DNA of 64,000 bases. It comes from a virus. The notes beneath the pieces are model-generated. The model was not told the DNA's origin and made no database searches. It saw only the letters and a program-made list of their open reading frames with translations. This document shows, piece by piece, positions 9,629 through 56,828 of this stretch. Made by a program: the position numbers and the translations under genes. The stretch is from positions 7,976 through 71,975 of the IMG/VR virus record IMGVR_UViG_3300045988_054550; one strand, given 5' to 3'. The stretch's first letter is position 1; each line of letters opens with the position of its first letter.

Positions 9629-9629
9629 A

Positions 9630-34106: not shown

Positions 34107-34319
34107 CTATTCATCTGTGCCTGTTTTCAGTTCTGGAAGCCCTGCTACAGATGTAAGCAAGGATAAAACGCCGGAAAGAACGGACGCGGATACGACCATC
34201 TTCCAGTCAACGCTTCCAAGAACTGTCGCGGTTCCGATTGTTGCAACAGCTGTCTGAGCAATTGTCTTAACAGCTCTGATTCCCGCAGCTTTCAGCCAAT
34301 GTAATTTATCTTTACTCAT
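34107..34319 (-). CDS. holin-like protein (LL-H/r1t holin family pattern)
   Basis: 70 aa. IRAVKTIAQTAVATIG...VDWKMVVSASVLSGVLSLLTSV. Confidence 0.55.
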   Translation of the reverse strand: MSKDKLHWLKAAGIRAVKTIAQTAVATIGTATVLGSVDWKMVVSASVLSGVLSLLTSVAGLPELKTGTDE

Positions 34320-34359: not shown

Positions 34360-34767
34360 TTACGCTTCCAATAATTGCCCGGTGTAAATTCTGCTGTACC
34401 GGCTTATGATTCGTTTAAAACTTTTTTCAGAGTTTGCAACTTCTTCTGGCCCGTATGTTCTTCGGAATCCCATAGAAATCATGGCTTCATGACTCTTACT
34501 GTCGATTTCGTACGCTGTTGACAAGGCTTTTACACCTGATGCGTAGCTCTCAGTTTGAAACGAAAGCACAGTCGCGCATTCACTTCCATCAAGGCTAGAT
34601 GATTGTGTTGGATTTCCCATCAAAAACAACCGGGCATATTTCTTTTTGTCTGTCGCTATTGTCTGGCTTTTTTCCATGGAGTAATTGCCTTTGCCGACAA
34701 ATGCTCCAACAATCTTGCTCCAACGTAAAAGTGCTTCCTCTACTGGAGGATAGATAACAGTCGGCAT
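34360..34767 (-). CDS. tail completion/terminator-like protein (positional)
   Basis: Start refined to MPTVIYPP after AAGGAGGTG. Confidence 0.35.
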   Translation of the reverse strand: MPTVIYPPVEEALLRWSKIVGAFVGKGNYSMEKSQTIATDKKKYARLFLMGNPTQSSSLDGSECATVLSFQTESYASGVKALSTAYEIDSKSHEAMISMGFRRTYGPEEVANSEKSFKRIISRYSRIYTGQLLEA

Positions 34768-34784
34768 AGGGCACCTCCTTTTGA

Positions 34785-34873
34785 GCATGAAAAAAGCACC
34801 CACCGCTCAGGTAGATGCTTTTATATGTTACAGTATATCATTTTTCGATGTATGTTTTTGTATGGGATTTTTA
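34785..34873 (-). repeat. conserved intergenic element, copy A
   Basis: Shares a 25 nt identical box (TAAAAATCCCATACAAAAACATACA, overlapping the upstream TAA), a -10-like box, a hairpin and GGTGCTTTTTTCATGC with 48225-48316. Confidence 0.8.
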
Positions 34874-35398
34874 TGAAGAAAATACTTCTTTTGCAATTTT
34901 CCTAATGTTCTGCATAATCTTCATGATTGCCTTATATACCGGCATGGTAGCTTCGGTACCATAAGAGCGTACCCACTCGCCAGAATCGGCATAATAAACC
35001 CACGATTCATTCTTGCCATTCCCTTGCCCGTATGAACCGATTGTGTAACCAAAATCTTGCCCCTTGGGATGCGGACTGGTTCCTGCCGGAGTGTTGTAGT
35101 GAATACCCGACCCAAATTCAATGAACAAAAGGTCAGAGCCTTCACACACAAGCGTCGCCTGAGAATAGCCGCCAAAGTTATTGATTCTGATATAGGTGTT
35201 ATGGTTTTTGTCAGAATCACCTTGTGCCAATGCTATGTTTTCATCTATGACCGGGATTCCAAGTTCTGCTAGCCTGCGGACAAATTCCTCATTTTTACTC
35301 ACAAGCGACTTCTGGTACGCTCTGAGCTGCTTTATTGTGTCCTGTATAGATTTATGCGACAATTCCATTTTAATGCTCTTATTCGCCATCTGAGCCAT
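34871..35398 (-). CDS. HK97 gp10-like head-tail component
   Basis: 175 aa. LLFIEFGSGIHY resembles the gp10-family EFGT motif. Confidence 0.45.
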   Translation of the reverse strand: MAQMANKSIKMELSHKSIQDTIKQLRAYQKSLVSKNEEFVRRLAELGIPVIDENIALAQGDSDKNHNTYIRINNFGGYSQATLVCEGSDLLFIEFGSGIHYNTPAGTSPHPKGQDFGYTIGSYGQGNGKNESWVYYADSGEWVRSYGTEATMPVYKAIMKIMQNIRKIAKEVFSS

Positions 35399-35753
35399 CT
35401 CCTATATACTTGATGCCATATCGTGCCACATTTCCTTTCTGAGTATCAAGAATCTTTTTTAGACGATAGTCTGGCGGGACTGTAGGCTCTCCAGATTCGT
35501 TCAATTCCGGTTTGCAGTCTATCCAGAATACATCTGCAATCTGTGGTTTAAAGCTACGGTCAAAATTCGTGATGTACCTATCGTAATCAGGGACGTACCC
35601 GGCAGATAATTCTTCCGGCGTTCCGGCTGTTGCTGACACGGATAGGCAATGCAGTTCTGGATTCTGATATTTCTTGATTGTGTCTATTCCGTCAAGTTCT
35701 TCTGTCACCCTAGACCAGTATATTGTTTGTTTTTGACGTTTTAGTCCTCTCAT
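35379..35753 (-). CDS. head-tail joining protein (positional)
   Basis: Start refined to MRGLKRQ after AAGGAGAAC. Confidence 0.35.
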   Translation of the reverse strand: MRGLKRQKQTIYWSRVTEELDGIDTIKKYQNPELHCLSVSATAGTPEELSAGYVPDYDRYITNFDRSFKPQIADVFWIDCKPELNESGEPTVPPDYRLKKILDTQKGNVARYGIKYIGDGSDGE

Positions 35754-35960
35754 ATAGTTCTCCTTAAATAACATATTTATGATGATTGTATCTGACCGAT
35801 TCTTGATTAACCTTTGCGCTGTTCCTTATAAATAGGTAGAGGTTTTACGAAAGTTTTCCATTTTTTAATGAATTAAATGGGAATAAATGCTTTAGCAATA
35901 ATTTTGAATTTGTTATAAGTCCCTGTTTCGACATGTGCAAGAAATACTTTTGATGCCTTA

Positions 35961-37031
35961 CTATTTAATCGGAATAATTACAGTCCCATATAAAAATGGA
36001 TATGGACAGTATATATCAATATTGCCATCTACCTTAATTTGAATATTTCCAATATTAGTATTACCGTCTTTAACTAAGGCGCTTCTGTATGCACCAATAG
36101 AATCCTTCAATATATATATATCCGGTAGTTGGGCAATGTTTGTTTGAGCAATTTGCGAATCTTTAGCATTTCCATTGAATTTGCAGTACAATAGTTTGCC
36201 AACAGCAAAAGTAGCTAAAACACCATATTCACCGCAGGTGATATATCTGATATTATCAATTTTTACTTTACTATTTAATTCATTAATCGCTCCCAGAATT
36301 GTTTTGTCGTTCGTCTGAAGCTTTGCAAACACTTTATCAGCGATTTTATTAAGGACAAAGTCTGACAGCTTGCTCAGCACACCCCTTTTCATTCCTGTAC
36401 CATCATTAATCAGAAACGCATCAGAATCAGCTAATGTACCTCTGTCGGTGTAATTCGCAGATTCCAGATTTTCCGTTTTGGTTTTCAAGGATGTTATGAT
36501 CTCGGAATCCTCTCTCAAGTATGGTGCCATATCAATAGCCGGTCCAAGAGTGTCCCATATTTCTCCCGTCCATGCTACATTCATGCCTGCCTCTCCATAA
36601 ATAGATTTTTCAGATATATTATACATCCATCCAATCTTAGGAGATAACGGGAGCTGTGAAATATTTGATACGGAACCTTTGTATAAAAGTGGTGTTGCAA
36701 TTCCCTCTACGTCTTCTGATACCTGCTGGATTTTTCCGTTAAGAACACCATATACTTCAATCGGTGTTACTTTGCTTTGTTCGATCTTATCAGGTTTATA
36801 CCACAATTTCTTACTCTCATCAAATTTGTAATACTCTCCTGTATCGGTCATAAAACATGATGAATTGTTAGCAACGTACAGAGGGAGTTTGTCTGAATCT
36901 TTCGCAAGTCCTTCATAATGACGTTTACCACCATCTTTGAAAACTCGGTGAATACTGCCAAGTTGCGGAAGCTGTTCGCCTGGCTTGTATTCTACATCAT
37001 CAATGATTACTGTATTTTGTGCAACTGCCAT
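35961..37031 (-). CDS. fibre-like protein, fused paralogue of 39067..39309 + 37320..39053
   Basis: N-terminus VIIDDVEYKPGEQLPQLGS...YEGLAKDSDKLPLYV...WYK, followed by LLYKGSVSNISQLPLSPKIGWMYNIS..GEAGMNVAWTGEIWDTLGPAIDM. Start at MAVAQ after GAAAGGAGAAC. Confidence 0.6.
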   Translation of the reverse strand: MAVAQNTVIIDDVEYKPGEQLPQLGSIHRVFKDGGKRHYEGLAKDSDKLPLYVANNSSCFMTDTGEYYKFDESKKLWYKPDKIEQSKVTPIEVYGVLNGKIQQVSEDVEGIATPLLYKGSVSNISQLPLSPKIGWMYNISEKSIYGEAGMNVAWTGEIWDTLGPAIDMAPYLREDSEIITSLKTKTENLESANYTDRGTLADSDAFLINDGTGMKRGVLSKLSDFVLNKIADKVFAKLQTNDKTILGAINELNSKVKIDNIRYITCGEYGVLATFAVGKLLYCKFNGNAKDSQIAQTNIAQLPDIYILKDSIGAYRSALVKDGNTNIGNIQIKVDGNIDIYCPYPFLYGTVIIPIK

Positions 37032-37152
37032 AATAGTTCTCCTTTCACTTATCAATTCAAAATATAATCTTTTTCTTCCTTTGTAAGAATTGAGAGATTT
37101 TCTATCTTTTCTTTTGTAATTTTGCGAATTGCTTAACTAAAGCACAATTTAG

Positions 37153-37317
37153 TTAATTAGTTTCCACTTTCGGTTCTTCTTCCTTATTAACATCCATCAG
37201 CTCATTATACTGTTCCTCAGTAATTCTGCCCGTTGCGAAGAAAATATCAATCTTATTTTTCAAATCATCTGTCAGACCGTTTTTCTCTTTAAGTTTTAGT
37301 AATGTTCTATATAACAT
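37153..37317 (-). CDS. XkdX-family small protein
   Basis: 54 aa. FFATGRITEEQYNELM is the XkdX signature. Follows a fibre gene as in PBSX-like elements. Confidence 0.6.
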   Translation of the reverse strand: MLYRTLLKLKEKNGLTDDLKNKIDIFFATGRITEEQYNELMDVNKEEEPKVETN

Positions 37318-37319
37318 AA

Positions 37320-39053
37320 TCATACCTCCAATTCTGTTAATGCTACTGCGTATTCACTGTTGACGTAGGCTTCTGCCGCCTGCAAATCAGTATCCTGAGT
37401 ACGTGCATCCATATCATAGATATAATTTCTCGTATCGCCTATCTGCTGTTTTACATAGTTCCAACCGTTCTCCATTGAAATCGGATAATTGAATACTGTA
37501 TATCCGTCAAGCTGTTCGGAATTGATAAATATATTTGTGACTGGATAATAGGTTGCAAGTGATTTGAATGCGGCAATTTCTTCGGGTGCGAGGTCGATTT
37601 CTGTTGGATTGGCTAATTGGTATATAATTCTTGTTCCATACACTTCATTTTTAAACGCACTCAAATCGTCTGTATTAGAATGAAATGCGATTGGTTTGAG
37701 ATTATCATGCGTTGATAGCCAACATCTATAAATATATTTGTTATCTGTCCTATCTACTAAAGCTACGCCTTGATATTTAGTAGTTTGCAGTCTTGCTATA
37801 TCATCGCTGTTATCACTTATTACAAATACATCATCCATTCCATAAACAAAAAATGTATTAGTAGTAATTCTCGTAATTTGATTCATGTCAGAGATAACAC
37901 ATTCTCCAACCATCCTCACCAATTTCCCTCTCTCCACATCCACATAATCCGCAATATACTGCTGACCATCGATTGTGACGTTACCACCTGAGTTTACAGG
38001 GATTGCATTCAATGTGTATGGGAGGGCGACGGTCTTAAATTGTGTTCCATCTTCATTTGATAATTTTACAGTCGGATTCACCACGCTCTTAATCTCCTGC
38101 GGATAGTCAGGATTTGGGCTTGGAATACCGCCGGTGTAGGGTTCGTAGGATGTAGCTTCAAGATTTTTAGTTAGCATAATCTCATTCGTTTCATTTGATG
38201 TAGTATTTGAATATCTGATAGTAAGACATACTTCTGTTTCTTCATCAAGCGTAAATGTCGTATCAGTTTTTCCTTCTGAAATCGTAGCGATAGCTGAATA
38301 ATCTCTTTTGGATAATCCTATTTTCAACGCAGAAATATTTTTCAATAGCATTTTATAGGTTCCTGGCGCAAGAGTTATATATCTATTAGTTGAAGTATAG
38401 CCACCTGCGCCTGAAATTGTGCCACTTACTGAATATCCAAATTTTGTACTGGTTATTCTTGCGCCATTATATGTTTGAGAATAATCTTCATAATCCATAT
38501 AATAAATATTATCCCCACTATACTGTTTCTGCTCAGACTTCCCATACAGCATCATATCCATAATTTTGCCGCTATCAGAATCGGCAAGATGGGTTTCGCC
38601 TTGTGAACTTGCATAGAATTTGGCGATTTTGGTGGATATATCTTCCTTTAGTGAACCAGTTTCCGTTTTCAGTGAAGCAATGTCTGTCTTGTTCTGCTCA
38701 ATCTGCTGTGCCTGTTCTGTCGTGGCTCCAGGCTTGACTGGATTCTTTTCAAAATATTCCGTAACTAATCTTTGCATTACCGTCTCTGCTTCTTCTTTTG
38801 TGAGATACAGTGACATATCAATTGGAGCGCCCATAGTGTCCCAAACTACGCCGTTCCATGCCACATTCATTCCTGCTTCGCCGTAGACCGACTTAGACTC
38901 GATATTGTACATATCGCCAATGTCTGGATTTAATGGAAGCAAATCAGCAGTCGCAACTGTACCTCTGTATCTTACAGGGCTATTTAATTTTGCTTCCATA
39001 TCGGAAATCTGGCGTTTTAATATTGCATATACTTTCTTTGCTGTTAATGCCAT
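37320..39053 (-). CDS. fibre protein (577 aa)
   Basis: Start at MALTAKK after AAGGAGAA. RYRGTVATADLLPLNPDIGDMYNIES..GEAGMNVAWNGVVWDTMGAPIDM is shared with 35961..37031. Distinct C-terminal domain. Confidence 0.6.
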   Translation of the reverse strand: MALTAKKVYAILKRQISDMEAKLNSPVRYRGTVATADLLPLNPDIGDMYNIESKSVYGEAGMNVAWNGVVWDTMGAPIDMSLYLTKEEAETVMQRLVTEYFEKNPVKPGATTEQAQQIEQNKTDIASLKTETGSLKEDISTKIAKFYASSQGETHLADSDSGKIMDMMLYGKSEQKQYSGDNIYYMDYEDYSQTYNGARITSTKFGYSVSGTISGAGGYTSTNRYITLAPGTYKMLLKNISALKIGLSKRDYSAIATISEGKTDTTFTLDEETEVCLTIRYSNTTSNETNEIMLTKNLEATSYEPYTGGIPSPNPDYPQEIKSVVNPTVKLSNEDGTQFKTVALPYTLNAIPVNSGGNVTIDGQQYIADYVDVERGKLVRMVGECVISDMNQITRITTNTFFVYGMDDVFVISDNSDDIARLQTTKYQGVALVDRTDNKYIYRCWLSTHDNLKPIAFHSNTDDLSAFKNEVYGTRIIYQLANPTEIDLAPEEIAAFKSLATYYPVTNIFINSEQLDGYTVFNYPISMENGWNYVKQQIGDTRNYIYDMDARTQDTDLQAAEAYVNSEYAVALTELEV

Positions 39054-39066
39054 ATGTGCTTCTCCT

Positions 39067-39309
39067 TTACAGTTTGTACCATGTATCGGTAGGTTTGTGA
39101 TATTCGTATAATTCAGATGTATCAAGACACAACGCCGAAGAACCACTCTCTACATAATGTGGGAGCTTTGATACATCTTTTGAAAGCCCCTCGTAATCAC
39201 GAACCATACCTTTTGCATCTGTACATACCCAACTACCTAAATCCGGCAATTCATCACCGGGATTGTACTGAATGCCATCAAAAATAATTGTGTTTTCTGC
39301 TTTTGCCAT
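39067..39309 (-). CDS. fibre N-terminal module as separate 80 aa gene
   Basis: Homologous to residues ~10-90 of 35961..37031 (IIFDGIQYNPGDELPDLGS...YEGLSKDVSKLPHYV...WYKL). Confidence 0.55.
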   Translation of the reverse strand: MAKAENTIIFDGIQYNPGDELPDLGSWVCTDAKGMVRDYEGLSKDVSKLPHYVESGSSALCLDTSELYEYHKPTDTWYKL

Positions 39310-39696
39310 CTATGCAATCATCCTTTCTGCCCCAATGGGAGCTACATATGTGAACTGGTTTCCTAAGATATCTCTGGCCGTGCCAATAACAAACTGTCCA
39401 TAGTCTGCCAGAATATTACATACAAATTCCTCCGCGTCCACCCAATACCGTTTCTTAACCATACGATGAAGTTCTGGTAATAGACCATAACTGAACATCA
39501 CGCAATGCCCTAACTCATGAATAAATACACGGTTCAGAAGTTCTCCATATAGGCTATTTGCGATTGAAATAACGTGGGTGGAATAATCCGATACTCCAAG
39601 CGTTCTATTGCCTGTACGGTCAATTAACACGCTGTCATGCGGAGATACAAACTGCACTCTCCATAGGTCACCGTTCATGTAAAATTGTCTTAGCAT
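39310..39696 (-). CDS. HExxH zinc metallopeptidase-like protein
   Basis: FIHELGHCV motif, 128 aa. Confidence 0.55.
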   Translation of the reverse strand: MLRQFYMNGDLWRVQFVSPHDSVLIDRTGNRTLGVSDYSTHVISIANSLYGELLNRVFIHELGHCVMFSYGLLPELHRMVKKRYWVDAEEFVCNILADYGQFVIGTARDILGNQFTYVAPIGAERMIA

Positions 39697-39771
39697 GGCT
39701 TATCACCATCCTTTTCTCAACTAAAAAGCCCCTGCTACATTCCTGTAACAAGGGCAAAATTCATATTATAT

Positions 39772-40398
39772 TCAGTTCATCTGCTGTATGAAACGTGTTA
39801 AGTCAGTCTTCATCTGCTGTCTGATTGATGCGTCTGCATCATCCCACATTTCTTTCATATTGCGGATGATATCTTCTGTATACTCTTTCATGGAATCATC
39901 CATTTTTCTCTTAGACTCAGCGTCTTTGGAATCATGGTAATGTCTGCGATTCTCGCTGTATCTGTCGTAGGTTTCACCATATCTGGACTGCTTATGGTTC
40001 ATTCCGTCCATTCTCATGCCACTACGGTCTGGATGATATCCCATGCGGTACATGTTCTGATCAAACTCTGGATTGATCGGATATTCGCTTATCCAGTCAT
40101 CATCCTGCATATGAAGATATGGCATATATCCCATTCGGCTTCCTCTGCCTTTTGGTGCAAATCTGCCGTTTGCGTAACGATATCTGTCATATCCCATGCG
40201 TCCAAGATACTTCTCTTCCTGCTCGCATTCGTCCATAGCTTCTACGATTCTGTAATCCTTATCTGCACAAATCGCACACTTTACAGCTTCCATGCAGTCT
40301 TTCAAATCGTCCCAGTCTTGAGCGCTGAGATTGTCAAATCCATGTGCTTTGGCTTTTTCCATAGCCCATTTTCCCATTTCCATTGCAACTTTATGCAT
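39772..40398 (-). CDS. low-complexity protein with RMGY repeats
   Basis: 208 aa with GRMGYDRYRY, SRMGYMPY and YRMGYHPDRSGMRMDGM. No family recognised. Confidence 0.5.
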   Translation of the reverse strand: MHKVAMEMGKWAMEKAKAHGFDNLSAQDWDDLKDCMEAVKCAICADKDYRIVEAMDECEQEEKYLGRMGYDRYRYANGRFAPKGRGSRMGYMPYLHMQDDDWISEYPINPEFDQNMYRMGYHPDRSGMRMDGMNHKQSRYGETYDRYSENRRHYHDSKDAESKRKMDDSMKEYTEDIIRNMKEMWDDADASIRQQMKTDLTRFIQQMN

Positions 40399-40823
40399 TA
40401 CATTGCCCCCTTTCTGGCAGCCTGTGTAACAGGTGTGTCTGTCGTTGGGGCTGTGCCATTAATTGCTGTTAAATTGTTACTCGGACTACAAGCCGGATTT
40501 CCTAACATCTTGAATACTCCGCCGGTTACACTTGTAGCTACTCTGGTTGCGTACTTTGTTCTGGTTCTTATTCCGCAAGCCGTAACCTGTGCGCAGCAAC
40601 GATTCTCTAGCGGATACAAAGTTGTTCCTGTTCCTATCTGAATCATTACCGGGGCAGTAATTGTAGTGGCTTCCGGTATGCTTTGCGCAACAACAATACA
40701 ATATTTCTCTCCATTGTTGTAACTGCCTGCCGGAAGTGTGATTACAAGATTGCCTCCTGTAAACGCAACGGCTTGGCTGATTACAAGATGGTTGCAGAGC
40801 TTACAAACACTTTTACAACTCAT
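40398..40823 (-). CDS. Cys/Thr-rich hypothetical protein
   Basis: 141 aa. MSCKSVCKLCNH...RCCAQVTACG. Confidence 0.5.
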   Translation of the reverse strand: MSCKSVCKLCNHLVISQAVAFTGGNLVITLPAGSYNNGEKYCIVVAQSIPEATTITAPVMIQIGTGTTLYPLENRCCAQVTACGIRTRTKYATRVATSVTGGVFKMLGNPACSPSNNLTAINGTAPTTDTPVTQAARKGAM

Positions 40824-40902
40824 ATTTTATACCTCTCAATCAAAATAAGAGGTGAGCCATAACCCACCTCTTAGAATTAGTCAACCTCTAAGGGTGAGTT
40901 AC

Positions 40903-41712
40903 TTAGCAGCATCCACTGTTGCATCCGCATCCGCCGTAATAGGTATTCGGATTCGGAACAACATATGCCGGAATAGCCGCCGGATTAATTGCATTGATTA
41001 ACTGCTGAGTCTGTGAAGCCATAGCAGTTGTAAGCAATGCGGACTGACGATCCTGAGATGCAGCACGTTTCAGATCAGTATTTTCTGCCTGTAATGTTGC
41101 AATCTTATCCTGAGTCAGGAAGTCAAGGATTGCTCTTGTGTTGCTGTTCTGGTTTTCCAGAAGATCTCTGGTGTTGTTGTTCATTGTGTTCTGGAGAGCA
41201 CAAGTGTTGGTAGCAAGGTTGTAGTTAATACCCTGTATAGCTTCTCTTGTTTCACAGCAACAGCTTGCTAACTGAGACTGTAAGGCATTGGTATTCTGCA
41301 TACCTGCTACTGTATCAGCATTGATAGCCTGCTGAACGCCATTGAAGCCCTGAAGCATTCCAACGTTCATGCCATTAAAGCCACTCTGCATGGTATTGTT
41401 AAGAGAATATGTGCTGTCACAGATACCCTGCTGAATACCTCTGATACCATTCTGAATATCATTAAGGGCGAATTCCTCATTAATATCCGCACGTGTGGCC
41501 CATCCTTGGAATCCAGCACCATTTGCACCGTTTCCACCATTGCCGCCAAAGCCGCCGCCCCAGCCGCCAAAACCTCCCCAGCCGAAGATTGCGAAGATCA
41601 GGACAAGCCAGATAAGTGAAAAGCCATCACCGCCCCACATATCATTTGCGCGACTATTAGAGCCTGTAGCAGCTGCAATGTCGCTAAGGCTGTAATTTGA
41701 ACCATTCATCAT
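40903..41712 (-). CDS. Gly/Asn/Gln-rich membrane-anchored protein with C-terminal GGCGCNSGCC
   Basis: 269 aa. TM helix LIWLVLIFAIFGW, then GGFGGWGGGFGGNGGNGANG, N/Q-rich repeats and a CCC cluster. Confidence 0.55.
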   Translation of the reverse strand: MMNGSNYSLSDIAAATGSNSRANDMWGGDGFSLIWLVLIFAIFGWGGFGGWGGGFGGNGGNGANGAGFQGWATRADINEEFALNDIQNGIRGIQQGICDSTYSLNNTMQSGFNGMNVGMLQGFNGVQQAINADTVAGMQNTNALQSQLASCCCETREAIQGINYNLATNTCALQNTMNNNTRDLLENQNSNTRAILDFLTQDKIATLQAENTDLKRAASQDRQSALLTTAMASQTQQLINAINPAAIPAYVVPNPNTYYGGCGCNSGCC

Positions 41713-41808
41713 GTTTTTAGTCTCCTTAAATTTTATTTACAATAGGAGACATCCGCGGCTGTCGTCCCGAATTGTAGCGATTTTTAATCACCCAATTGTG
41801 GGGAAGTG

Positions 41809-42054
41809 TTATAATCCAAGGAATTTCTGGATAATTCCATCTGGTGATAAGTGCTTTTCATTAAATACATTTTGCTGTATTTGATGTAACTGGTCTGTAT
41901 CACCTTTTTTGTATAAATCCAACGCATTCTTCAATGTTGGATTATTTCCTGCAAATTTACTCATATCGTTCATCATGTTGTCAACACTTCCGAACCTCTG
42001 AGAAATCATTCTTTCAAGTTGCTTTTTCATCATGGCGTTTGGGTTGAAATTCAT
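41809..42054 (-). CDS. hypothetical protein
   Basis: 81 aa ORF. Confidence 0.45.
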   Translation of the reverse strand: MNFNPNAMMKKQLERMISQRFGSVDNMMNDMSKFAGNNPTLKNALDLYKKGDTDQLHQIQQNVFNEKHLSPDGIIQKFLGL

Positions 42055-42548
42055 CTCTGCCTACCTCCATTCTGCTTAGGTTCCGATGTCCCCGACATCT
42101 GCGTCGGAAACATATTCTTTATTTCAGAAATCTCCGAACAAACATCATTCCGAAGTTGATTAAACATTGCTTCAATGTCAATCTGCTTTTCATCTTGCTT
42201 AGATTGCTGTTCGTCTGGATTTACGAGTCGGTAAACAAAAATCCTGCTTCTTCCATCGGATTGAAGCTGTTTTCTGTAAATTTCAGTTCCGTCTGTTTTT
42301 GGATAGTAAACAGGATTACCGGACATATCCACATCTTTAGCCTTTACAGTATCAATCCCATCCACCATCTGTCCTTGAAGCATAGGTGATTGTGGAACCG
42401 GCTGTAACTGTTGCATCTGTATTTGACCATAAGGCATTGCCTGCTGATAATTATTTTGCAGTTGAGCCAGCCTGTCCTGATACGGCTGTATCTGTCCGTA
42501 TGGATTGTTTATTATTGGTTGTTGCGGATAATACGGATAACCTGCCAT
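42051..42548 (-). CDS. Gln/Pro/Tyr-rich protein
   Basis: Start refined to MAGYPYYPQQ after GGAGGAAC. N-terminal half is Q/P/Y low complexity. Confidence 0.5.
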   Translation of the reverse strand: MAGYPYYPQQPIINNPYGQIQPYQDRLAQLQNNYQQAMPYGQIQMQQLQPVPQSPMLQGQMVDGIDTVKAKDVDMSGNPVYYPKTDGTEIYRKQLQSDGRSRIFVYRLVNPDEQQSKQDEKQIDIEAMFNQLRNDVCSEISEIKNMFPTQMSGTSEPKQNGGRQR

Positions 42549-42703
42549 AATCTGTTCCTCCTGTCCGGGATTCAAGAATCATATCCATATCATCTATAGA
42601 ACGATGCTTTTCCCATATACCCTCGTAAGGGTTTCTTAACATAATCATTGTGTTTTCTCCTATGATTATATTATATAGGAAGGAACTCTGTTTTTGAACG
42701 TCA

Positions 42704-42958
42704 CTATTTCGCCACGTTTTCGCCACAATACAAAGAAAAGCCCCGACAGTACATCGGGGCAACTTTAGAAATTTTCTTCTTTATTCTTTTATTAATTCGG
42801 TCTATGGTTCTTGGACTATACCCCATAAGTTCAGATGCTTCCCATAGTGTCTTTTCGCCATAGACCCGTAATCGAAACAGTTTTTCTTCTCTGGAATCGA
42901 AGCCTGCTTCTTTTAAATAAAATTTTCTTTCATCTTCTGAAAAGTCTGTATAATTCAT
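42704..42958 (-). CDS. sigma-70 region-4-like HTH regulator (84 aa)
   Basis: Start at MNYTDF after GGGAGGACGGTGGAAAT. EKTLWEASELMGYSPRTIDRINKRIKKKI. Confidence 0.5.
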   Translation of the reverse strand: MNYTDFSEDERKFYLKEAGFDSREEKLFRLRVYGEKTLWEASELMGYSPRTIDRINKRIKKKISKVAPMYCRGFSLYCGENVAK

Positions 42959-42987
42959 ATTTCCACCGTCCTCCCTTACAAGTGGAA

Positions 42988-43299
42988 TCAAACTGGAAGA
43001 ATACCGCTTAACATAAAACCGATAACTGCGCTGACAATAGATGTAATAACACATACAATGATTGTATCGTAACGCTTTCCCGGGACTGCCATGAGAGTCT
43101 TTATATTGTTATTCATCTCATCCACAGTTGACTTGATATGATTCAAGTCGTTTTCACTTAATGCCGTTTTTCTTTCCAGTTCCCCGATACGCTCATAAAA
43201 CTCCTTATGTCGGTCGGATTGTCTTTCTTGCATCTTTCGAAGATTATCTTCTAATTCTGCTATGCGGTGTTCATTAAAACATTCGTGTTCACATCCCAT
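42988..43299 (-). CDS. XhlA-like coiled-coil membrane protein
   Basis: 103 aa. Coiled coil plus C-terminal TM IIVCVITSIVSAVIGFMLSGIL, an architecture like PBSX XhlA. Confidence 0.5.
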   Translation of the reverse strand: MGCEHECFNEHRIAELEDNLRKMQERQSDRHKEFYERIGELERKTALSENDLNHIKSTVDEMNNNIKTLMAVPGKRYDTIIVCVITSIVSAVIGFMLSGILPV

Positions 43300-43412: not shown

Positions 43413-43739
43413 TTAAATTAAACTTCCTACAAATGGAAAAACGCCATGACTAATATATATTTCCGTTTCGGATTTCCATTTTCGACTTACTGAATTTTCA
43501 GAATGCGATTCTTGGAACTCGGCTCCCTGTTTCACAAGGAAATAGAGAGCCAGATCAAATATACAATCATAACAGTATTCCATATCGGTATTGATTTTTT
43601 CCTCTGTATATCCAGACGGATAGTTGCGCTTCTTTTTAAATGAACGAATTGCACGCTTCACAGACAAAGAAATCATACCGTCAGTTTCCGCATCATCGGA
43701 TAGATACTCTTTCAGATCATTTACAAGCCGTTCGTCCAT
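43413..43739 (-). CDS. gp6-like head-tail connector protein
   Basis: 108 aa. N-terminus LVNDLKEYLSDDAETDGMISLSVKRAI is typical of this family. Lies directly after the capsid gene. Confidence 0.55.
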   Translation of the reverse strand: MDERLVNDLKEYLSDDAETDGMISLSVKRAIRSFKKKRNYPSGYTEEKINTDMEYCYDCIFDLALYFLVKQGAEFQESHSENSVSRKWKSETEIYISHGVFPFVGSLI

Positions 43740-43934: not shown

Positions 43935-44972
43935 TTATTCCCCCGCTTTGGTGCCGATTACGATACCACCATTAGCTTTTGGTACAACAGGAACGAACAT
44001 ACCGGATGCTTTTGTCCATACTGCCACAGGGTCTGGAGTGGCCCACATAGACAGTGTTACGAAAGAACGGTTCTCTTCTTGTATAAACTGTCTGTATTCA
44101 AGTTCCTCTCGTGTTACGCCCCAGAGTCCAGTACCAAATGAACCGTTTGGCTCTGCTTCATACAGCGTGAATACATCTTCTTTGAAGTATCTTCCTGTTT
44201 TGAGAGAACCATCCGCTTTTCTGAATCTGAATTTTTCGTCACAACGATCAATTGTGATTCCGTATTCCTGCATAAGCAGATTTGCAAGCTCCTGTTTTGT
44301 TAAGAGACGTTTGTTCGCTGCTCCCAGAACTGCTGTCTGCATTGCAGTGTTGTTTCTCATGTAGTTAATCATTTTAAGTGATGTCAGGGCTTTGTTTACC
44401 ACAAATCCATTATCTTCTGCAATAGCGACCATCTTCTGGATATCACCCATGATATCTGCATCTGGTTTAGACCAGTCTGTCATTTCTACTTTTGCATCGG
44501 ACGGAACGCCATAATCAATGCTCATATCCACATTGTTTTCTTTAATTTTTACAACACCTGTGCTAAGAAATTGGCCTTTCATGACATTTGCTCTAGCAAC
44601 AACTCCTTCAAACAGATTAGCTGCATCATCAAATACAAATTTCTTTAAATTCTCATCATCCGGCACACCATTTTCAATTGCCTGCTGTAATCTCTCAGAC
44701 TGATTGATTTTTCTCTTAATAAAGAGCTTTTCAGTCAGGACTTTTTCGAAGCCCGGTCTTGTTCCGATTTCTGCTTCAGTATCAAGTGCATGAACGAATG
44801 CTACCTCTGGAAGTCTCTGTCCAGCCATAAGTCTGTAGTATTCAGCTTTCAGAAACTGTGTTTTGACATCCGGGAAGATGGTGTCAAGAATGCCCGGCCT
44901 TTTTACGCTGAAATCCTGAGAAAAGTTAAGTCTTTCTTCCGGTGTGATTGATTCTAAAATATTAAATGGCAT
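43935..44972 (-). CDS. major capsid protein
   Basis: 345 aa. Follows the scaffold and decoration-like genes (position and size). Confidence 0.7.
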   Translation of the reverse strand: MPFNILESITPEERLNFSQDFSVKRPGILDTIFPDVKTQFLKAEYYRLMAGQRLPEVAFVHALDTEAEIGTRPGFEKVLTEKLFIKRKINQSERLQQAIENGVPDDENLKKFVFDDAANLFEGVVARANVMKGQFLSTGVVKIKENNVDMSIDYGVPSDAKVEMTDWSKPDADIMGDIQKMVAIAEDNGFVVNKALTSLKMINYMRNNTAMQTAVLGAANKRLLTKQELANLLMQEYGITIDRCDEKFRFRKADGSLKTGRYFKEDVFTLYEAEPNGSFGTGLWGVTREELEYRQFIQEENRSFVTLSMWATPDPVAVWTKASGMFVPVVPKANGGIVIGTKAGE

Positions 44973-46470: not shown

Positions 46471-46752
46471 TTACTTGATATATGTGTCTATAAGCGTATA
46501 CGAAGCAATTACATCCAGATATTTGTCATAAAATTGAGTCTGGATATATTCTCGGTTTGTTTCTCCGCTTTCTATGGTTGTTTCTATCAGCGCCAAAATA
46601 TAAAGGACAACTTCTTCCATTTTTTCGGAAAAAGCTATCCTTTCTTGTTTTTCTTTGTCTGATATCGACATTTTGCTGAAATATTCTTTATATGGTTCGC
46701 TTCTGCGGTTACTGGGTCTGATATTTAATTCATCGTATGATGAAACATTCAT
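46471..46752 (-). CDS. hypothetical protein, possibly the N-terminal part of the minor head protein
   Basis: 93 aa. Same frame as 46099..46458, separated only by TAA plus 4 codons. Confidence 0.4.
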   Translation of the reverse strand: MNVSSYDELNIRPSNRRSEPYKEYFSKMSISDKEKQERIAFSEKMEEVVLYILALIETTIESGETNREYIQTQFYDKYLDVIASYTLIDTYIK

Positions 46753-48203
46753 TCTGAAATCACGTCCTTGTTAAAGCCATTCAGCAAATTTTTCGCTTTT
46801 TGAAGTTCTGAGTCTGGGTCTGCTAATTCCGGGTAAATGGTTCCAAGATATGGTAAACTCATTTCATATACTTTTTGCGGATCACTAAATAATCCGCAAG
46901 TAATCAGTGCAATAAGCGGATGAATTTTATTCTTAAACAGATAATCAAGTGCCTGTGCTTTGACAAGCATGTTATCTGTCGGGTTTCTAGTGATTTTTAC
47001 ATCAAAATCCCTGGTCGAAATATTTACATCCATTGAAGTTTTTCGGATGATATTCAAAATAATTCTGACAGATGCTTTTTCAGCTTCTTTCGTAAATGCT
47101 TCTACCAATTTTGCGTCTCGTTCTGCAAAATCCCAACCATTCCTCAGATATACTGCATTACCAGTATCACCGCCTGTATTGCTTTGCCGGTTTGGCATTG
47201 CTTCTACAATCAGCATATTGTTGTAAATATCATCTTTTGCAACCTGACTCTCTGACTGATTTAGTTCGGCGGTCATTAAATCAACGTCTGATTGTGTTCC
47301 GTTTCCAACGTCTTTTACCGATACCGCACCGAGTTTAACCATCTTTACAAACTCTGCTTCATCAATTTCACAGTTCTTAAATTTCATCAGGGCTTGCACA
47401 AACTGCTCAACACCATTCAACCGATCAGATTGGTATTTGTTAATGGCATCATATGCCGTAATTGAAATTTCAATATCGGAAAGCCTATCAGGATTATTCG
47501 GATATTCATTAATAGGAATCCCGTCAAATCCGTTTATTCCAAATTCTTTAAGTTGTCCATTTTGCACAATAAAATATTGTCTACTGGAAAACAGTAAATA
47601 ATATTGCTCATTATCTTCATCTTTCAGAATCTGAACCGACGCAATAGGTCTTCCGGTTCGACTAGAATAGATAATATATACGTCCCCCGGATACGGAATA
47701 AAAATCTGAAATGGTGGTAAATCACTACCTTCTGTCCAGTCGTCATTCTTAAGAATACACTTATATGCAGTCCCTACCGCACTCTGGTATATTCCAAGCT
47801 GAATATTTCTGGCATCCGCATTTGCTTCGTCCAGGTAATCATTCAATAAGTCAACCTGAGCATTAGTTTCTTTGCTTGCTTTCTTTTTCTTACAAACATA
47901 TTGGATTGGTTCTCCATATATCTGTCCTGCCTTGAATTTTACCGTTTCAAGTGCATGGTTCTCGACGACTTTGTTATTAACTTCGGGCCGAACAAGTTTC
48001 TCGCGATATAAAATCGGCTGATCTCCCTTGTAATATCTGTAAAGATAATCAATCATAGCCCTGTTTCGATTGTGAATTCCAATTGTATTTGAAAGAACCT
48101 GCAATACATTATCGGGTGTAATCTGGTCTACGCCGGTATAAGCAACTTTTCTTCCGAATTCGCCATGGCATAGATCAATAAAGTTTATTTTGTTTCTCCC
48201 CAC
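46749..48203 (-). CDS. portal protein (SPP1 gp6-like)
   Basis: Start refined to GTG (MGRNKINF) after AGGAGGACAGGCA. About 484 aa. Position is after TerL. Confidence 0.8.
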   Translation of the reverse strand: MGRNKINFIDLCHGEFGRKVAYTGVDQITPDNVLQVLSNTIGIHNRNRAMIDYLYRYYKGDQPILYREKLVRPEVNNKVVENHALETVKFKAGQIYGEPIQYVCKKKKASKETNAQVDLLNDYLDEANADARNIQLGIYQSAVGTAYKCILKNDDWTEGSDLPPFQIFIPYPGDVYIIYSSRTGRPIASVQILKDEDNEQYYLLFSSRQYFIVQNGQLKEFGINGFDGIPINEYPNNPDRLSDIEISITAYDAINKYQSDRLNGVEQFVQALMKFKNCEIDEAEFVKMVKLGAVSVKDVGNGTQSDVDLMTAELNQSESQVAKDDIYNNMLIVEAMPNRQSNTGGDTGNAVYLRNGWDFAERDAKLVEAFTKEAEKASVRIILNIIRKTSMDVNISTRDFDVKITRNPTDNMLVKAQALDYLFKNKIHPLIALITCGLFSDPQKVYEMSLPYLGTIYPELADPDSELQKAKNLLNGFNKDVISE

Positions 48204-48224
48204 TGCCTGTCCTCCTATTTTTCT

Positions 48225-48316
48225 GCATGAAAAAAGCACCGGAATAAAATCCAGTGCTTAATTTTACATTTTATATTATACACTACTTTAGTGTATGTTT
48301 TTGTATGGGATTTTTA
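48225..48316 (-). repeat. conserved intergenic element, copy B
   Basis: See 34785-34873. Same 25 nt box overlapping the upstream TAA, TGTATAAT box, hairpin AAGCAC..GTGCTT and TTTTTTCATGC. Confidence 0.8.
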
Positions 48317-48733
48317 AGATTCAAATTTTTTTAATTGGCGAATTACTGAAATTGCGTCTATATGGAGCTGTCTTACCCACTGATAGGCATAACCCAATTC
48401 ATCAGAAATTGCATAAAGCGTTTTCCCTTCGACATATTTTTTGAATAAAATATCATACAAAACCGGATTTTCAACGGAATCAATTGTTCTAATAACTTCC
48501 GTTCTTTTCTTTAAATATTCATCTGTGATATTTCGAATTTCTTTTTGCAAATCAACAATCTCTGCAACTAAATCTCCTGTCTTGTCTTTGTTTCCGGACG
48601 TTTGCACACGCTCGCCGTATGAGAAAGAACTTAATCCAGTTGCATGTGCTTTTAGTTGTTCAATTTCTATGTATTTATTGTGAATTACTCTATCATAACG
48701 TTGAATCTGGTTCAAATATTCTCTCGTGTTCAT
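48314..48733 (-). CDS. ArpU/DUF1492-like (sigma region-4-like) transcriptional regulator
   Basis: 139 aa from MNTREYLNQ (ATGA overlap with the TerL stop). C-terminal HTH TLYAISDELGYAYQWVRQLHIDAISVI. Confidence 0.5.
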   Translation of the reverse strand: MNTREYLNQIQRYDRVIHNKYIEIEQLKAHATGLSSFSYGERVQTSGNKDKTGDLVAEIVDLQKEIRNITDEYLKKRTEVIRTIDSVENPVLYDILFKKYVEGKTLYAISDELGYAYQWVRQLHIDAISVIRQLKKFES

Positions 48734-50472
48734 GCGTATCTCCTTCCCCAAAATGGGTTATGAATGGCTGTTGCTTTTCCACCTAAAGGATTTTGTACGA
48801 ACTCAGCTAACATCGCCAAGCTGTCAGGTCCATCATCATGAGCCACTTTTGCCCTTGTAGTGTATGTGGTTACATTCGCCATAAATAATCCGTAGTCGGA
48901 TTTTGGTTTATACTGGCTCGGATGTAAAAAATAAAAATGTTTTGATATGTAATCAGAGTTTACGAGAATTTTTGTCTCTTTATTTGCTTGCGTAGGTCTT
49001 GTTTCGATATCCGCTCGGCATTTCCCTGAGATTATCTTTTGAATGTTGTGCGCAACACGATTTCCTACGTTATTTGACTCAAATCTGATTTTATGCGGAT
49101 TGTGTTTTATCAAAATATCAGCAGTCTTTCTGTCCAGGATGTCGTAATCTGTAGTATCATCGAAAACAACGTCCGGGATAAAAAATTTATCCCCATATTG
49201 ATATGCAATAGGTAATGATTCAAAATCTGTACCTTTATCTTTTGTATCACATACTGCCCATATCGCATCTGCTTCTCTGTCTGGTATAATTGTGTATTCG
49301 TCCGTGCATCCATCGGGAACGTCTTCTTTGCCAAAGAAAAATCTTTTTAGCTTATCTGGCGGAAGCAATAATCCTTCACGTTCTACTGGTTGTTGCTGAT
49401 AAAGACAGTTATAAGAGATTTCGTCCATGGACTCTTTAGCATCGTTGAAATATTTCTCAGAGAACCCATTTACTGTGAATAAAAAATTGCTTTTGCCATT
49501 CTCATCAAGTGCCGGTACTGCTATGAACCTCGCTCTAGGGTTCCCGGCGTATAACTGCTGTAGCTTTCCGATAGGGTCATGCACTGACCATCTGGTAGCA
49601 ATGTAAAACTCTTTGCACCCTTCAAGTCTACGGGAACGCAAGTCATTTACTACTTTTGTCCATAAGGTGTCCAGTCGATTCTTGTTCAGTGCTTCTTCGA
49701 TACCAGACACAAGGTCATCGGCGGTAAGAAATCTGTTACAACGGGTAGCACCAGTCAGAGAGCCGTCAATTGATCGGAACGTCCATGTTTTAAAACGTCC
49801 GTTTCTTTCAAGATTTACTGTTGTTTCTTTTGCGTTTGTTCCCTGTATTTCGACATTTGGAAAAATCTCATGCCATGTATATTCAACAGGGTCGTTGATA
49901 ATCTCCAATACTCCATCATAGAGAGAGCGAGTCAAAATACTACTATGTGCAGATGATAAATTAAAATCATTAGGAAACCATCCGCCAACAAGTGAAAGAA
50001 AGAAATCTTCAAGAGTCGATTTGCCACAGCCAGGAGGTACGCTCAATGCAAATATGTCAAGCTTATCGTCCATCAAATCTTGTAACGAACCTATGATATT
50101 GTGCTGCATGAATACGTTTCTTCTTGGTTCATAAAATCTTTCTTTTGGAATTCTATTTTTCTCGAGATACAATAACCCGCTATCTACTTGAAGGTTTTGC
50201 GCTTCCATCAACAAATAATCCCAATAAATATCATCGAAATTACCATCGCCGGTAATAGCAGCTTGCCTTTCTGCGATATTGTGTGCATACTGGCTTACCT
50301 TTATTCCCATCTGTTGCGCATCTGGATTATCCTTGAAAGGAAGGTCAATATTCATATTTAACAGCAGATCAAGGCAGTCTTTCTGGTTTTGATAGGCTGT
50401 CATATCGCCATTGATTATTTGATTTAGGATTGCCCGATACCATTCAAGCGAACCTTCTGTGAATTTTTGCAT
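48730..50472 (-). CDS. terL: terminase large subunit
   Basis: 580 aa with Walker A-like VPPGCGKST, plus size and position. Confidence 0.85.
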   Translation of the reverse strand: MQKFTEGSLEWYRAILNQIINGDMTAYQNQKDCLDLLLNMNIDLPFKDNPDAQQMGIKVSQYAHNIAERQAAITGDGNFDDIYWDYLLMEAQNLQVDSGLLYLEKNRIPKERFYEPRRNVFMQHNIIGSLQDLMDDKLDIFALSVPPGCGKSTLEDFFLSLVGGWFPNDFNLSSAHSSILTRSLYDGVLEIINDPVEYTWHEIFPNVEIQGTNAKETTVNLERNGRFKTWTFRSIDGSLTGATRCNRFLTADDLVSGIEEALNKNRLDTLWTKVVNDLRSRRLEGCKEFYIATRWSVHDPIGKLQQLYAGNPRARFIAVPALDENGKSNFLFTVNGFSEKYFNDAKESMDEISYNCLYQQQPVEREGLLLPPDKLKRFFFGKEDVPDGCTDEYTIIPDREADAIWAVCDTKDKGTDFESLPIAYQYGDKFFIPDVVFDDTTDYDILDRKTADILIKHNPHKIRFESNNVGNRVAHNIQKIISGKCRADIETRPTQANKETKILVNSDYISKHFYFLHPSQYKPKSDYGLFMANVTTYTTRAKVAHDDGPDSLAMLAEFVQNPLGGKATAIHNPFWGRRYA

Positions 50473-55725: not shown

Positions 55726-55797
55726 TCGGAAAGGCAGGAATCGAACCTGCGACACATAGCTTACAATGCCATTGCTCTACCACTGAGCTACATTCCA
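55726..55797 (-). tRNA. tRNA-Thr (anticodon UGU)
   Basis: Hand-folded cloverleaf: TGGAATG TA GCTC-AGTGGTA-GAGC A ATGGC-ATTGTAA-GCTAT GTGTC GCAGG-TTCGATT-CCTGC CTTTCCG A. One U-U mismatch and a terminal U-G in the acceptor. Confidence 0.75.
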
Positions 55798-56491: not shown

Positions 56492-56564
56492 TGGAAACTA
56501 CAGGACTTGAACCTGTGACTTGTCGGTTATGAGCCGACCGTTCTGCCAACTGAACTAAGTCTCC
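56492..56564 (-). tRNA. tRNA-Met (CAU; elongator type, or Ile2 if lysidine-modified)
   Basis: GGAGACT TA GTTC-AGTTGGCA-GAAC G GTCGG-CTCATAA-CCGAC AAGTC ACAGG-TTCAAGT-CCTGT AGTTTCC A. Confidence 0.85.
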
Positions 56565-56756: not shown

Positions 56757-56828
56757 CTAGGCTAGTGGGATTCGAACCCACGAATTCAGCAGTCAAAGTG
56801 CTGAGCCTTACCGCTTGGCGATAGCCCA
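56757..56828 (-). tRNA. tRNA-Gln (UUG)
   Basis: TGGGCTA TC GCCA-AGCGGTA-AGGC T CAGCA-CTTTGAC-TGCTG AATTC GTGGG-TTCGAAT-CCCAC TAGCCTA G. Confidence 0.85.

Follow-up and report, generated by a model that had tools for sequence, protein, structure and literature searches.

The region considered here occupies positions 35961-43299 of a 64,000-nucleotide stretch of virus DNA (the window: positions 7,976 to 71,975 of IMG/VR record IMGVR_UViG_3300045988_054550), which is a minus-strand segment of a phage genome with about 39% GC. It probably represents a composite accessory island within the head-tail joining genes, formed of a cassette of eight minus-strand genes, X-S-Q-p-G-C-M-H (unit A, 39310-43299), and of a slot that holds fibre genes (unit B, 35961-39309). 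The phage belongs to a common human-gut lineage: IMG/VR contains 424 relatives of its capsid protein, and the best 80 of these share 93-99% identity with it and lie mostly on contigs of 75-80 kb, and the closest GenBank matches of the phage are faecal virome scaffolds without annotation.

Every gene of the window was compared by tblastn with the best 80 related loci, and the region was tallied in 42 close relatives that span the major capsid protein (MCP) gene through the gene for a 131 amino acid (aa) protein on the right flank. For the wider survey of the cassette one genome per species was scanned, giving 159 loci, and the neighbours of the cassette were labelled by iterative profile searches seeded with the window proteins. 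Individual loci are referred to by L numbers.

Genes and predicted signals at the locus

The open reading frames (ORFs) that an initial annotation, made from the sequence alone, had placed in the region are all present on the minus strand at the coordinates it gave (Table 1). The first, X, had been called XhlA-like, a label which its PHROG match and predicted membrane anchor favour, though Pfam XhlA is absent among its matches at E up to 0.1. The description of S as a sigma-region-4-like regulator holds, in that the protein matches positions 116-163 of TIGR02937 (E 2e-7, 30.8 bits against a family cutoff of 42.9) and Pfam Sigma70_r4 with an E of 0.003. This ORF is open back to 43054, and an ATG at 42958 preceded by a ribosome-binding site (RBS) is its likely start, as read from the sequence. 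The S family co-occurs with the cassette in 126 loci. That S is a true sigma factor was rejected, since regions 2 and 4 would be required and region 4 alone is matched, in a protein of 84 aa.

The Q protein has a Gln/Pro/Tyr-rich N-terminus (17% Gln, 9% Pro), a conserved beta-rich core of ~60 aa, and a C-terminal helix; its family is seen in 153 loci, and Q itself has no Pfam or PDB match. In G, a predicted N-terminal transmembrane (TM) helix at residues 31-42 is followed by a Gly/Trp-rich linker and by helices at 84-122 and 138-242 (low-confidence AF2 secondary structure), giving an Asn/Gln-rich helical rod of ~160 residues that contains an invariant CCC; the C-terminal tail is rich in Cys and GCGCNxGCxC-like. 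The AF2 model of G, with a pLDDT of 49, is too low in confidence for a fold search, and that of C (pLDDT 59) has no Foldseek PDB match. There is no Pfam domain in C and no Pfam or PDB match for M. The compositional bias on which four proteins had been called low-complexity is real, and because the families are very large and conserved (5,251 clusters at 90% identity for C and at least 7,974 for G) these sequences are taken to be genes and not noise. None of the G and C cluster members has a Pfam domain or an informative name.

The last gene, H, had been labelled an HExxH peptidase, and H60, E61, and H64 are indeed invariant, with E90 near-invariant. Its own profile matches are weak and all below cutoffs (IrrE with E 0.006, MJ1213, WLM, and DUF6782); within its family SprT-like is matched by 15 of 20 members (best E 2e-5) and Peptidase_M78 by 10 of 20, again below cutoffs. 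Searches of PDB sequences with fibre 1, fibre 2, C, H, Q, and M returned nothing significant beyond weak gluzincin matches. No description of the cassette was found in the literature.

On the coding strand, S is followed by a hairpin with a T-run, two GTGGCGAAA repeats, the promoter-like TTCAAA-17-TATAAT, Q-p-G, a second hairpin, C-M, a third hairpin, and H. With a regulator gene among them, and with a terminator, a set of repeats, and a promoter-like site, these genes would, at the level of prediction, have their own regulation, as had been suggested. The gap at 42549-42703, previously described as promoter-like, does contain such a site after a strong hairpin, though such matches are not enriched as a class; the motif reported for the second gap, at 35775-35960, is present but weak, and falls below the scan threshold.

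In L077-L079 there are three ATGGCG(T) repeats, also with 11-nt spacing, in the same place as the GTGGCGAAA pair of the window, and other lineages have at that place three direct repeats of a different, lineage-specific sequence. In these lineages a hairpin and then a strikingly conserved T7-ATGCAAAAATTTAAGCATAAGGAGG element come after the repeats; 19 of 75 loci have the element upstream of Q, where 0.03 would be expected per region. The location of the GTGGCGAAA repeats would suggest that they are candidate binding sites for S and that S controls the promoter. Nothing in the gaps matched Rfam at E up to 1. Between the conserved promoter element and Q, cassettes of the Lachnospiraceae type have a conserved ORF of ~50-75 aa (MFSDEILEKIF...MQKIP...EVLE; L087:9112-9273, L102, L131, L168, L092, and L093); the window has an unrelated ORF of 65 codons (42451-42648) that overlaps the start of Q, the reality of which is doubtful.

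To the left of the cassette, the protein encoded at 43413-43739 has 158 homologues among 1.84 billion representative proteins and gave no family match when searched singly. It is nevertheless taken to be the gp6-like adaptor of the initial annotation, because PF05135 Phage_connect_1 is matched by 33 of 65 aligned diverse homologues (best E 1.3e-7) and the profile of the family matches the solved head-tail connector chains 8vd8_B (E 0.004) and 9m6x_A. The 131, 175, and 147 aa proteins to the right have no Pfam, PHROG, or NCBIfam match and no annotated homologue, and hhalign of the flanking joining proteins against the connector proteins of phiEf11, Abouo, and Dulem gave nothing above 20% probability. 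These three are presumed to be head-tail joining proteins on the basis of where they are encoded, ahead of a weakly tube-like protein of 164 aa, and of their number and size. An interrupted joining series, as proposed, is therefore supported by homology on the left, while on the right (35379..35753 onward) it is read from the placement, number, and length of the genes. In phiEf11 and Abouo, with the same capsid family, four or five small joining genes lie side by side after the MCP gene and lead up to the tube gene, in keeping with the claim that connector genes are normally contiguous. Both this contiguity and the near-empty variant in L024 point to an insertion between normally adjacent genes, as is characteristic of morons.

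Table 1. Features of the region and of the surrounding late genes, in window coordinates.
Feature	Position	Strand	Remarks
Large terminase	48730-50472	-	Late gene order of window
SPP1-type portal	46749-48239	-	Late gene order of window
Phage_cap_E-type MCP	43935-44972	-	
Left flank: gp6-like head-tail connector (adaptor), 108 aa	43413..43739	-	
X: XhlA-like coiled-coil protein, C-terminal TM anchor, 103 aa	42988..43299	-	phrog_937 'hemolysin' E 1e-12, full length
S: sigma-70 region-4-only helix-turn-helix (HTH) protein, 84 aa	42704..42958	-	TIGR02937 and Pfam Sigma70_r4
Terminator-like hairpin, 9-bp stem, 6 GC pairs, T-run	42740..42760	-	Within 3' end of S ORF; kept in L077-L080
Two direct repeats GTGGCGAAA, 11 nt apart	42707..42726	-	Just upstream of promoter-like site; sole tandem pair in window
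Promoter-like site TTCAAA-17-TATAAT	42670..42698	-	10/12 consensus matches; consensus match only
Q: 165 aa from likely ATG	42051..42548	-	phrog_21718 E 2e-20
p: helical protein, 81 aa	41809..42054	-	115 loci, in all between Q and G
G: Gly/Asn/Cys-rich membrane-anchored helical protein, 269 aa	40903..41712	-	phrog_16490 E 9e-66
Terminator-like hairpin between G and C, 12-bp stem	40846..40873	-	
C: beta-rich protein, 141 aa	40398..40823	-	8 Cys (6 invariant, 2 nearly invariant)
M: 208 aa, helical ends around Arg/Gly/Tyr/Met/Asp-rich disordered middle	39772..40398	-	Family in 112 loci
Terminator-like hairpin between M and H, 12-bp stem, 6 GC pairs	39728..39755	-	
H: minimal HExxH...E metallopeptidase-like protein, 128 aa	39310..39696	-	
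p80: stand-alone copy of fibre 2 N-terminal domain, 80 aa	39067..39309	-	47% identity, E 3e-22
Fibre 1: 577 aa from likely ATG	37320..39053	-	
Small protein, 56 aa, 'XkdX-like' by position	37153..37323	-	phrog_2310 E 1e-11
Fibre 2: about 356-364 aa	35961..37031	-	
Intergenic gap with weak TTGCAC-17-TATAAC motif	35775..35960	-	3/6 and 5/6 of consensus, below scan threshold
Right flank: three presumed head-tail joining genes, 131/175/147 aa	35379-35774, 34871-35398, 34360-34803	-	Position, number, size
Tape-measure-like protein, 1,577 aa	27817-32550	-	
DUF6711 protein, 141 aa	27383-27808	-	Tail-tip region 3' of tape-measure gene
Protein with five BspA-type LRR_5 stretches and four Big_3 domains, 1,230 aa	23701-27393	-	
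CHAP protein, probable endolysin, 476 aa	21097-22527	-	Last gene of late operon

Distribution and placement of the cassette

The full eight-gene cassette is present, with 80-100% identity, in 38 of the 42 close relatives and is truncated in four. In L024 the breakpoint is inside the 3' end of S, such that the order is gp6-like gene, XhlA-like gene, a fusion of S to a recombinase, and then directly the 131-aa gene; in L029 it is at the end of Q, in L037 inside the start of G, and in L045 at the terminator after G. Some of these breakpoints are near sub-unit boundaries, and the flanking structural genes are intact. The truncated variants are on contigs of 52-72 kb, compared to about 75-79 kb for typical relatives. 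The truncations are consistent with the cassette being dispensable, without proving that the variants are viable.

The distant relatives, in which the 175-aa protein is ~70% identical, are integrated prophages on contigs of 0.5-2.8 Mb and have the cassette at the same site. In one of these, L171, the cassette lacks the fibre and H is followed directly by the 131-aa gene. The block had been described as transplanted or rearranged, and a displaced cassette is indeed supported; the synteny comparison indicates, though, that the order is an old one, shared by the 38 close relatives and the distant prophages alike. Gene order conserved in related phages, one half of what had been named as evidence against such a block, is thus observed. 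The transplant of the cassette would appear to be old and common to the whole clade, and the cassette is predicted to have regulation of its own.

Outside of this clade, the order S, (optional ~128 aa), Q, p, G, C, M, (H) is fixed in more than 100 fetched loci of unrelated phages and prophages, mainly of Clostridia, and the carriers in the 159-locus scan are almost all Lachnospiraceae, Oscillospiraceae, Ruminococcus, and other Clostridia. Among 80 genome loci, Q is found in at least 70, S and M each in at least 40, p in at least 37, C in at least 30, and H in at least 22. An orthologue of H closes the cassette in L087 (E 8e-19). Many cassettes carry an extra protein of ~125-135 aa, not present in that of the window, with the pattern 'RVGDCAIRA...ANxVWGxYL...GHVV...D.WDS', which is suggestive of a small cysteine peptidase; it precedes S in L100, L104, L116, L134, and L142, and is between S and Q in L098, L109-L111, L118, L125, L140, and others.

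The cassette follows an endolysin gene in L084, L086, L112, L114, L115, L120, L132, and L160, and in Bajarodcaudo virus 5 and Butyrivibrio virus Ceridwen it closes the late operon, coming after the holin and lysin genes. Its usual upstream genes encode an XhlA-like protein, a two-TM holin-like protein, a protein of ~250 aa, and a single-pass membrane protein of ~100 aa. Eight of the nine ~250-aa neighbours tested are peptidoglycan hydrolases (Amidase_2, Amidase_3, CHAP, GH25, or M23), and with a limited set of lysin seeds a hydrolase homologue was found no more than 4.5 kb upstream, on the same strand, in at least 21 of 56 loci. Homologues of X precede the holin-endolysin pair in L112, L115, and L120, which X in the window does not. 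The earlier view that these genes are out of their usual place is therefore upheld: elsewhere the cassette comes directly after XhlA-holin-endolysin, and the CHAP gene of the window has stayed distal. The window CHAP protein is homologous to the lysin upstream of another cassette (E 2e-32), and its continued presence at the distal end would suggest that the cassette and the XhlA-like gene were parted from the lysin and came to lie within the connector series.

Two further placements were seen. In L085, L089, and L090, as in Dulem virus 35, the cassette is between the minor-capsid and scaffold genes; in Dulem virus 35, L089, and L090 the XhlA-like gene and S travel along with it. In the ~60-kb phages L087 and L088 it is split around an integrase among the replication genes, with the integrase between S and Q.

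The fibre slot and neighbouring genes

The first gene of the slot, p80, was overlooked in the initial annotation; its cluster has 553 members of 78-83 aa. A programmed frameshift joining p80 to fibre 1 was rejected, there being a clean stop, an RBS, and an ATG between two separate genes. The N-terminal ~90 aa of fibre 1 are conserved and the remainder is hypervariable among the relatives; segments of it are common to fibre-like genes adjoining the portal gene in L085, L089, and L090. In fibre 2 a p80-like domain is joined to the fibre-1 N-domain (47% identity, E 2e-24) and to a different distal part, such that the slot of the window holds two paralogous fibre units. Neither fibre has a family match, and both are related to fibre-like genes in the relatives. 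The XkdX label given to the 56-aa protein is not sustained, since there is no Pfam XkdX (PF09693) match at E up to 0.01 and phrog_2310, a family without functional annotation, alone is matched; a homologue is between the fibre genes and the holin in L086. The portal-adjoining genes (L085:3503-4996, L089:4631-6922, and L090:4848-6659) are fibre- or depolymerase-like, directly follow the portal gene in phages of ~42 kb, and have weak polysaccharide-deacetylase or pectate-lyase-like matches.

Among the relatives, the genes past H vary widely, the 56-aa protein and fibre 2 genes are often absent, and in L078-L080 the fibre genes are wholly absent. In 27 of the 42 close relatives a XerC/D-like tyrosine recombinase (PF00589, with SAM-like N-domains) is directly before the 131-aa gene, replacing fibre 2. 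Examples among L004-L075 are L052:17997-19034 and L024:11922-13064; in the latter the recombinase is fused in frame to S and replaces the rest of the cassette and the fibre slot. The window has no recombinase, and the possibility of a shufflon, or of fibres inverted by the tyrosine recombinase, was rejected on this ground and for want of convincing inverted repeats in L052 or the window.

In the homologous slot of the distant relatives L173-L175 there is a p80-like gene, a 656-aa fibre, and a reverse transcriptase. In L174:4992-8718, and also in L173 and L175, the 3' end of the fibre gene is followed by two more copies of ~170 nt, a template-like copy, and RVT_1, and in L174 the last repeat copy differs from the others mainly at its adenines. 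The slot of these prophages carries, in this arrangement, the signature of a diversity-generating retroelement (DGR); the extra tandem copies resembling variable regions in L174 are unusual. In the window there are no template or variable repeats, and the island has no ORF of reverse transcriptase size. Since the contents vary in this way, being swapped fibres, a recombinase, a DGR-linked fibre, or none, 35961-39309 is best seen as a host-range slot.

The region had been put forward as a single self-contained block, which these comparisons contradict: the cassette is found without fibres in L078-L080 and L171, and other relatives have a recombinase or a DGR-linked fibre in place of the slot. 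That the cassette occurs without the fibres, and that the fibre slot is exchanged independently, would mean that the two units have different histories.

Several other features of the surrounding genes were observed. An r1t-type holin gene (34107-34319, minus strand; PF16945, E 2e-13, above cutoff) is between the presumed joining genes and the tube gene, distant from the CHAP lysin. L171 and L173-L175 have a non-homologous Dp1-type holin in the same position, and in L089 and L090 a holin_5_2 gene is likewise among the connector genes; since all of these have one, a holin slot within the structural operon seems to be conserved. In the prophage relative L171 an Endonuclease_7 (PF02945) gene at 9515-10000 is inserted between the 131-aa and 171-aa joining genes, another insertion in the same stretch of the operon. 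A DUF1492 protein, of a sigma-region-4-like phage regulator family (E 4e-7), is encoded at 48314-48751 on the minus strand between the large terminase and the portal; the gene overlaps the end of the terminase gene and is a second small HTH gene within the structural operon, its product having marginal similarity to S. No recognisable Dit/Tal pair was seen in the tail-tip region of the window 3' of the tape-measure gene. There are tRNA genes on the minus strand of the window for Thr-TGT, Met-CAT, and Gln-TTG (55726-55797, 56492-56564, and 56757-56828).

Interpretation and comparison with known systems

The reading that we consider probable is that two parts, each mobile independently of the other, make up the region. 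The usual home of the cassette would be directly downstream of XhlA-holin-endolysin in Clostridia prophages, from which, in the ancestor of the ~77-kb phage clade, it would have moved without holin and lysin to a site between the gp6-like adaptor and the next joining gene. There X and S would be transcribed as the tail end of the head operon, with termination at the hairpin 42740-42760, and S, through its sigma-region-4 HTH, may bind the 11-nt-spaced TGGCG repeats and so control the promoter at 42670-42698, with its weak -35, that would drive Q-p-G. Partial read-through of the two internal terminators could then give C-M, and after it H, at lower levels. The products would include the single-pass membrane proteins X and G, the latter with a long helical rod and a Cys-rich tip, and as their partners the Cys-, Gly-, Gln-, and Arg/Tyr-rich proteins and a mini metallopeptidase. 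Jointly these may form a non-essential, late-expressed, envelope-associated assembly, with a role most probably tied to lysis or egress given the usual neighbours. The second part would be a host-range slot with two paralogous receptor-binding fibre units and a small XkdX-like protein, exchanged freely among the relatives.

The evolutionary and anatomical side of this, a transplanted post-lysin cassette beside a host-range slot, is well supported. The functional side, a late, S-controlled, envelope-associated accessory assembly, is our best guess from neighbourhood and architecture. Several observations weigh against it. Across the region 37 promoter-like matches were found where 35 were expected; as the class is not enriched, the promoter motif alone is weak evidence, and the promoter and terminator calls are in silico consensus matches. 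The covariation of the repeats is modest, TGGCGAAA versus ATGGCGT in two sublineages being the sole case seen. Strong predicted terminators inside a structural operon also raise the question of how the downstream tail genes are transcribed. The link to the envelope and lysis is drawn from gene neighbourhood and from predicted TM and helical segments, in models with pLDDT of 49 and 59. Finally, the presence of the cassette in the head-gene region in two lineages, including this one, also fits a role in the virion.

A more far-reaching proposal is that S-Q-p-G-C-M-H is a previously unrecognised, self-regulated system of Clostridia phages, which late in infection would build a membrane-anchored Cys/Gly-rich structure of prion-like or low-complexity type, perhaps as a new kind of device for egress or the completion of lysis or as an intracellular scaffold or condensate. 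Its control would be by a sigma-like factor that has region 4 alone and acts at an unusual, conserved promoter element. This is speculative, and in this full form we regard it as doubtful.

An unlikely alternative to the composite island is that the cassette is a moron for lysogenic conversion, expressed from the prophage and altering the host surface, as in superinfection exclusion or a surface or adhesion trait, with S as the switch. The predicted anatomy of terminator, promoter, genes, and terminator would suit this, as would the integrated state of the relatives on 0.5-2.8 Mb contigs, the integrase adjoining the cassette in L087 and L088, and the existence of natural deletion variants. The cassette usually comes last among the rightward genes, at the end of the prophage where the orientation of the genes reverses, and this is also where prophages of Firmicutes typically carry conversion genes. 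However, S is always at the end of a late operon, whether for lysis or head, which suggests lytic-cycle timing, and the weak -35 of the core promoter makes constitutive activity unlikely. Eight genes is large compared to known exclusion systems, there is no PADLOC defence match, and membrane segments are found in G and X only, with no signal peptide evident on the other proteins.

It is improbable that Q, p, G, C, and M are virion-associated, as head or neck decoration or as internal proteins, with the fibres being neck (collar) fibres and the island a part of the morphogenesis operon. The cassette is within head-gene clusters in two unrelated lineages, adjoins fibre genes, and is kept in 38 of 42 close relatives; fibre-like genes also adjoin the portal gene in L085, L089, and L090, and the rod of G has weak tblastn matches (E 5e-4 and 3e-6) to crAss-like 'outer capsid protein/viral fiber' genes. 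In most carriers, however, the cassette is after the endolysin and outside of the morphogenesis genes, and in L087 and L088 it is among genes for replication and lysogeny. It has predicted terminators and a promoter of its own, the truncated variants retain intact flanking structural genes, and an N-terminal TM helix such as that of G would be unusual in a virion protein of a tailed phage.

Most improbable is a spanin-like device for a third step of lysis, in which the TM-anchored rod of G and its partners would disrupt an outer envelope layer of Clostridia after the action of holin and endolysin. This would account for the position directly after the endolysin in many prophages and for the association with XhlA and a further single-pass membrane protein of ~100 aa, and the architecture of G, with its N-terminal TM, long helix, and invariant Cys, recalls that of the i-spanin Rz. 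Yet the hosts are monoderm Clostridia without an outer membrane, there is neither a lipoprotein partner nor a lipobox protein in the cassette, and its predicted promoter and terminators are independent. The cassette of the window is moreover apart from both the holin (34107-34319) and the lysin (21097-22527), and natural deletion variants exist. A two-component spanin in the strict sense was rejected, because G has the TM and helix but no lipobox protein accompanies it, and the carriers are Lachnospiraceae, Oscillospiraceae, and other Clostridia.

Other identities were rejected outright: an anti-phage defence system, for which PADLOC gave noise-level coiled-coil matches only; a double-glycine leader or bacteriocin in C, where the GG is not conserved; and a spore-coat, exosporium, or Ena-like nature of the Cys/Gly/Gln-rich proteins, with no Pfam match and no Foldseek PDB match for C. 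Carriers of the cassette also include a phage of Butyrivibrio fibrisolvens and metagenome-assembled genomes of Subdoligranulum and Christensenella, taxa which we take to be non-sporulating.

The interruption of the connector genes is in itself unsurprising, given that mosaic insertions and morons are familiar, and the architecture is a variant of known mosaicism. What is noteworthy is an ordered and very widespread cassette of gut Clostridia with its own regulator and a conserved upstream DNA element. From its habitual post-endolysin place and its movement as a unit, the cassette is a defined and testable candidate for an unrecognised stage of the life cycle in phages that are very common in the human gut. 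The slot, occupied within the clade in three ways (swapped fibres, recombinase, and DGR), may be useful for host-range prediction.

With regard to known systems, H resembles the minimal gluzincins (ImmA/IrrE M78, SprT-like, and the MJ1213 'minigluzincin') in its small size, its HExxH, and a Glu 26 residues past the second His, and differs in scoring below the curated cutoffs and in having no adjacent XRE-type repressor substrate. The likeness to the spanins Rz/Rz1 is in the usual position immediately after the endolysin and in the N-terminal TM anchor, long helical ectodomain, and conserved Cys of G; the monoderm hosts, the lack of an outer-membrane lipoprotein partner, the many more genes, and the predicted regulation set the cassette apart.

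The distal late genes of Bacillus subtilis PBSX are in the order xkdV-xkdW-xkdX-xepA-xhlA-xhlB-xlyA. The cassette likewise has an XhlA-like coiled-coil/TM protein, the small protein of the window comes after a fibre gene, and most carriers retain the order XhlA-holin-endolysin. In the window, by contrast, the island is without holin and endolysin, which are elsewhere, and XhlA is before the fibres rather than after them; we know of no counterpart of S-Q-p-G-C-M-H in PBSX. As in exchangeable fibre modules and the Mtd-type DGR of Bordetella phage BPP-1, the slot fibres differ distally between near-identical phages, and L173-L175 have the fibre, the reverse transcriptase, and the repeats with adenine-specific differences. 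The window itself has neither the reverse transcriptase nor the template repeat, and its slot is among head-tail connector genes, unlike host-range cassettes that follow the tape-measure and tail-tip genes.

A further comparison is with the morons of lambdoid phages, a concept from HK97/HK022 comparisons for extra transcription units between conserved late genes. As with these, the cassette is between genes that are adjacent in related phages and is delimited by a terminator-like hairpin and a promoter-like site, and it appears to be dispensable in natural variants and is found at different sites in different phages. It differs from them in its eight genes, its dedicated sigma-r4 regulator, and its predicted internal terminators, and in that phages from several families of Clostridia share it with its gene order conserved.

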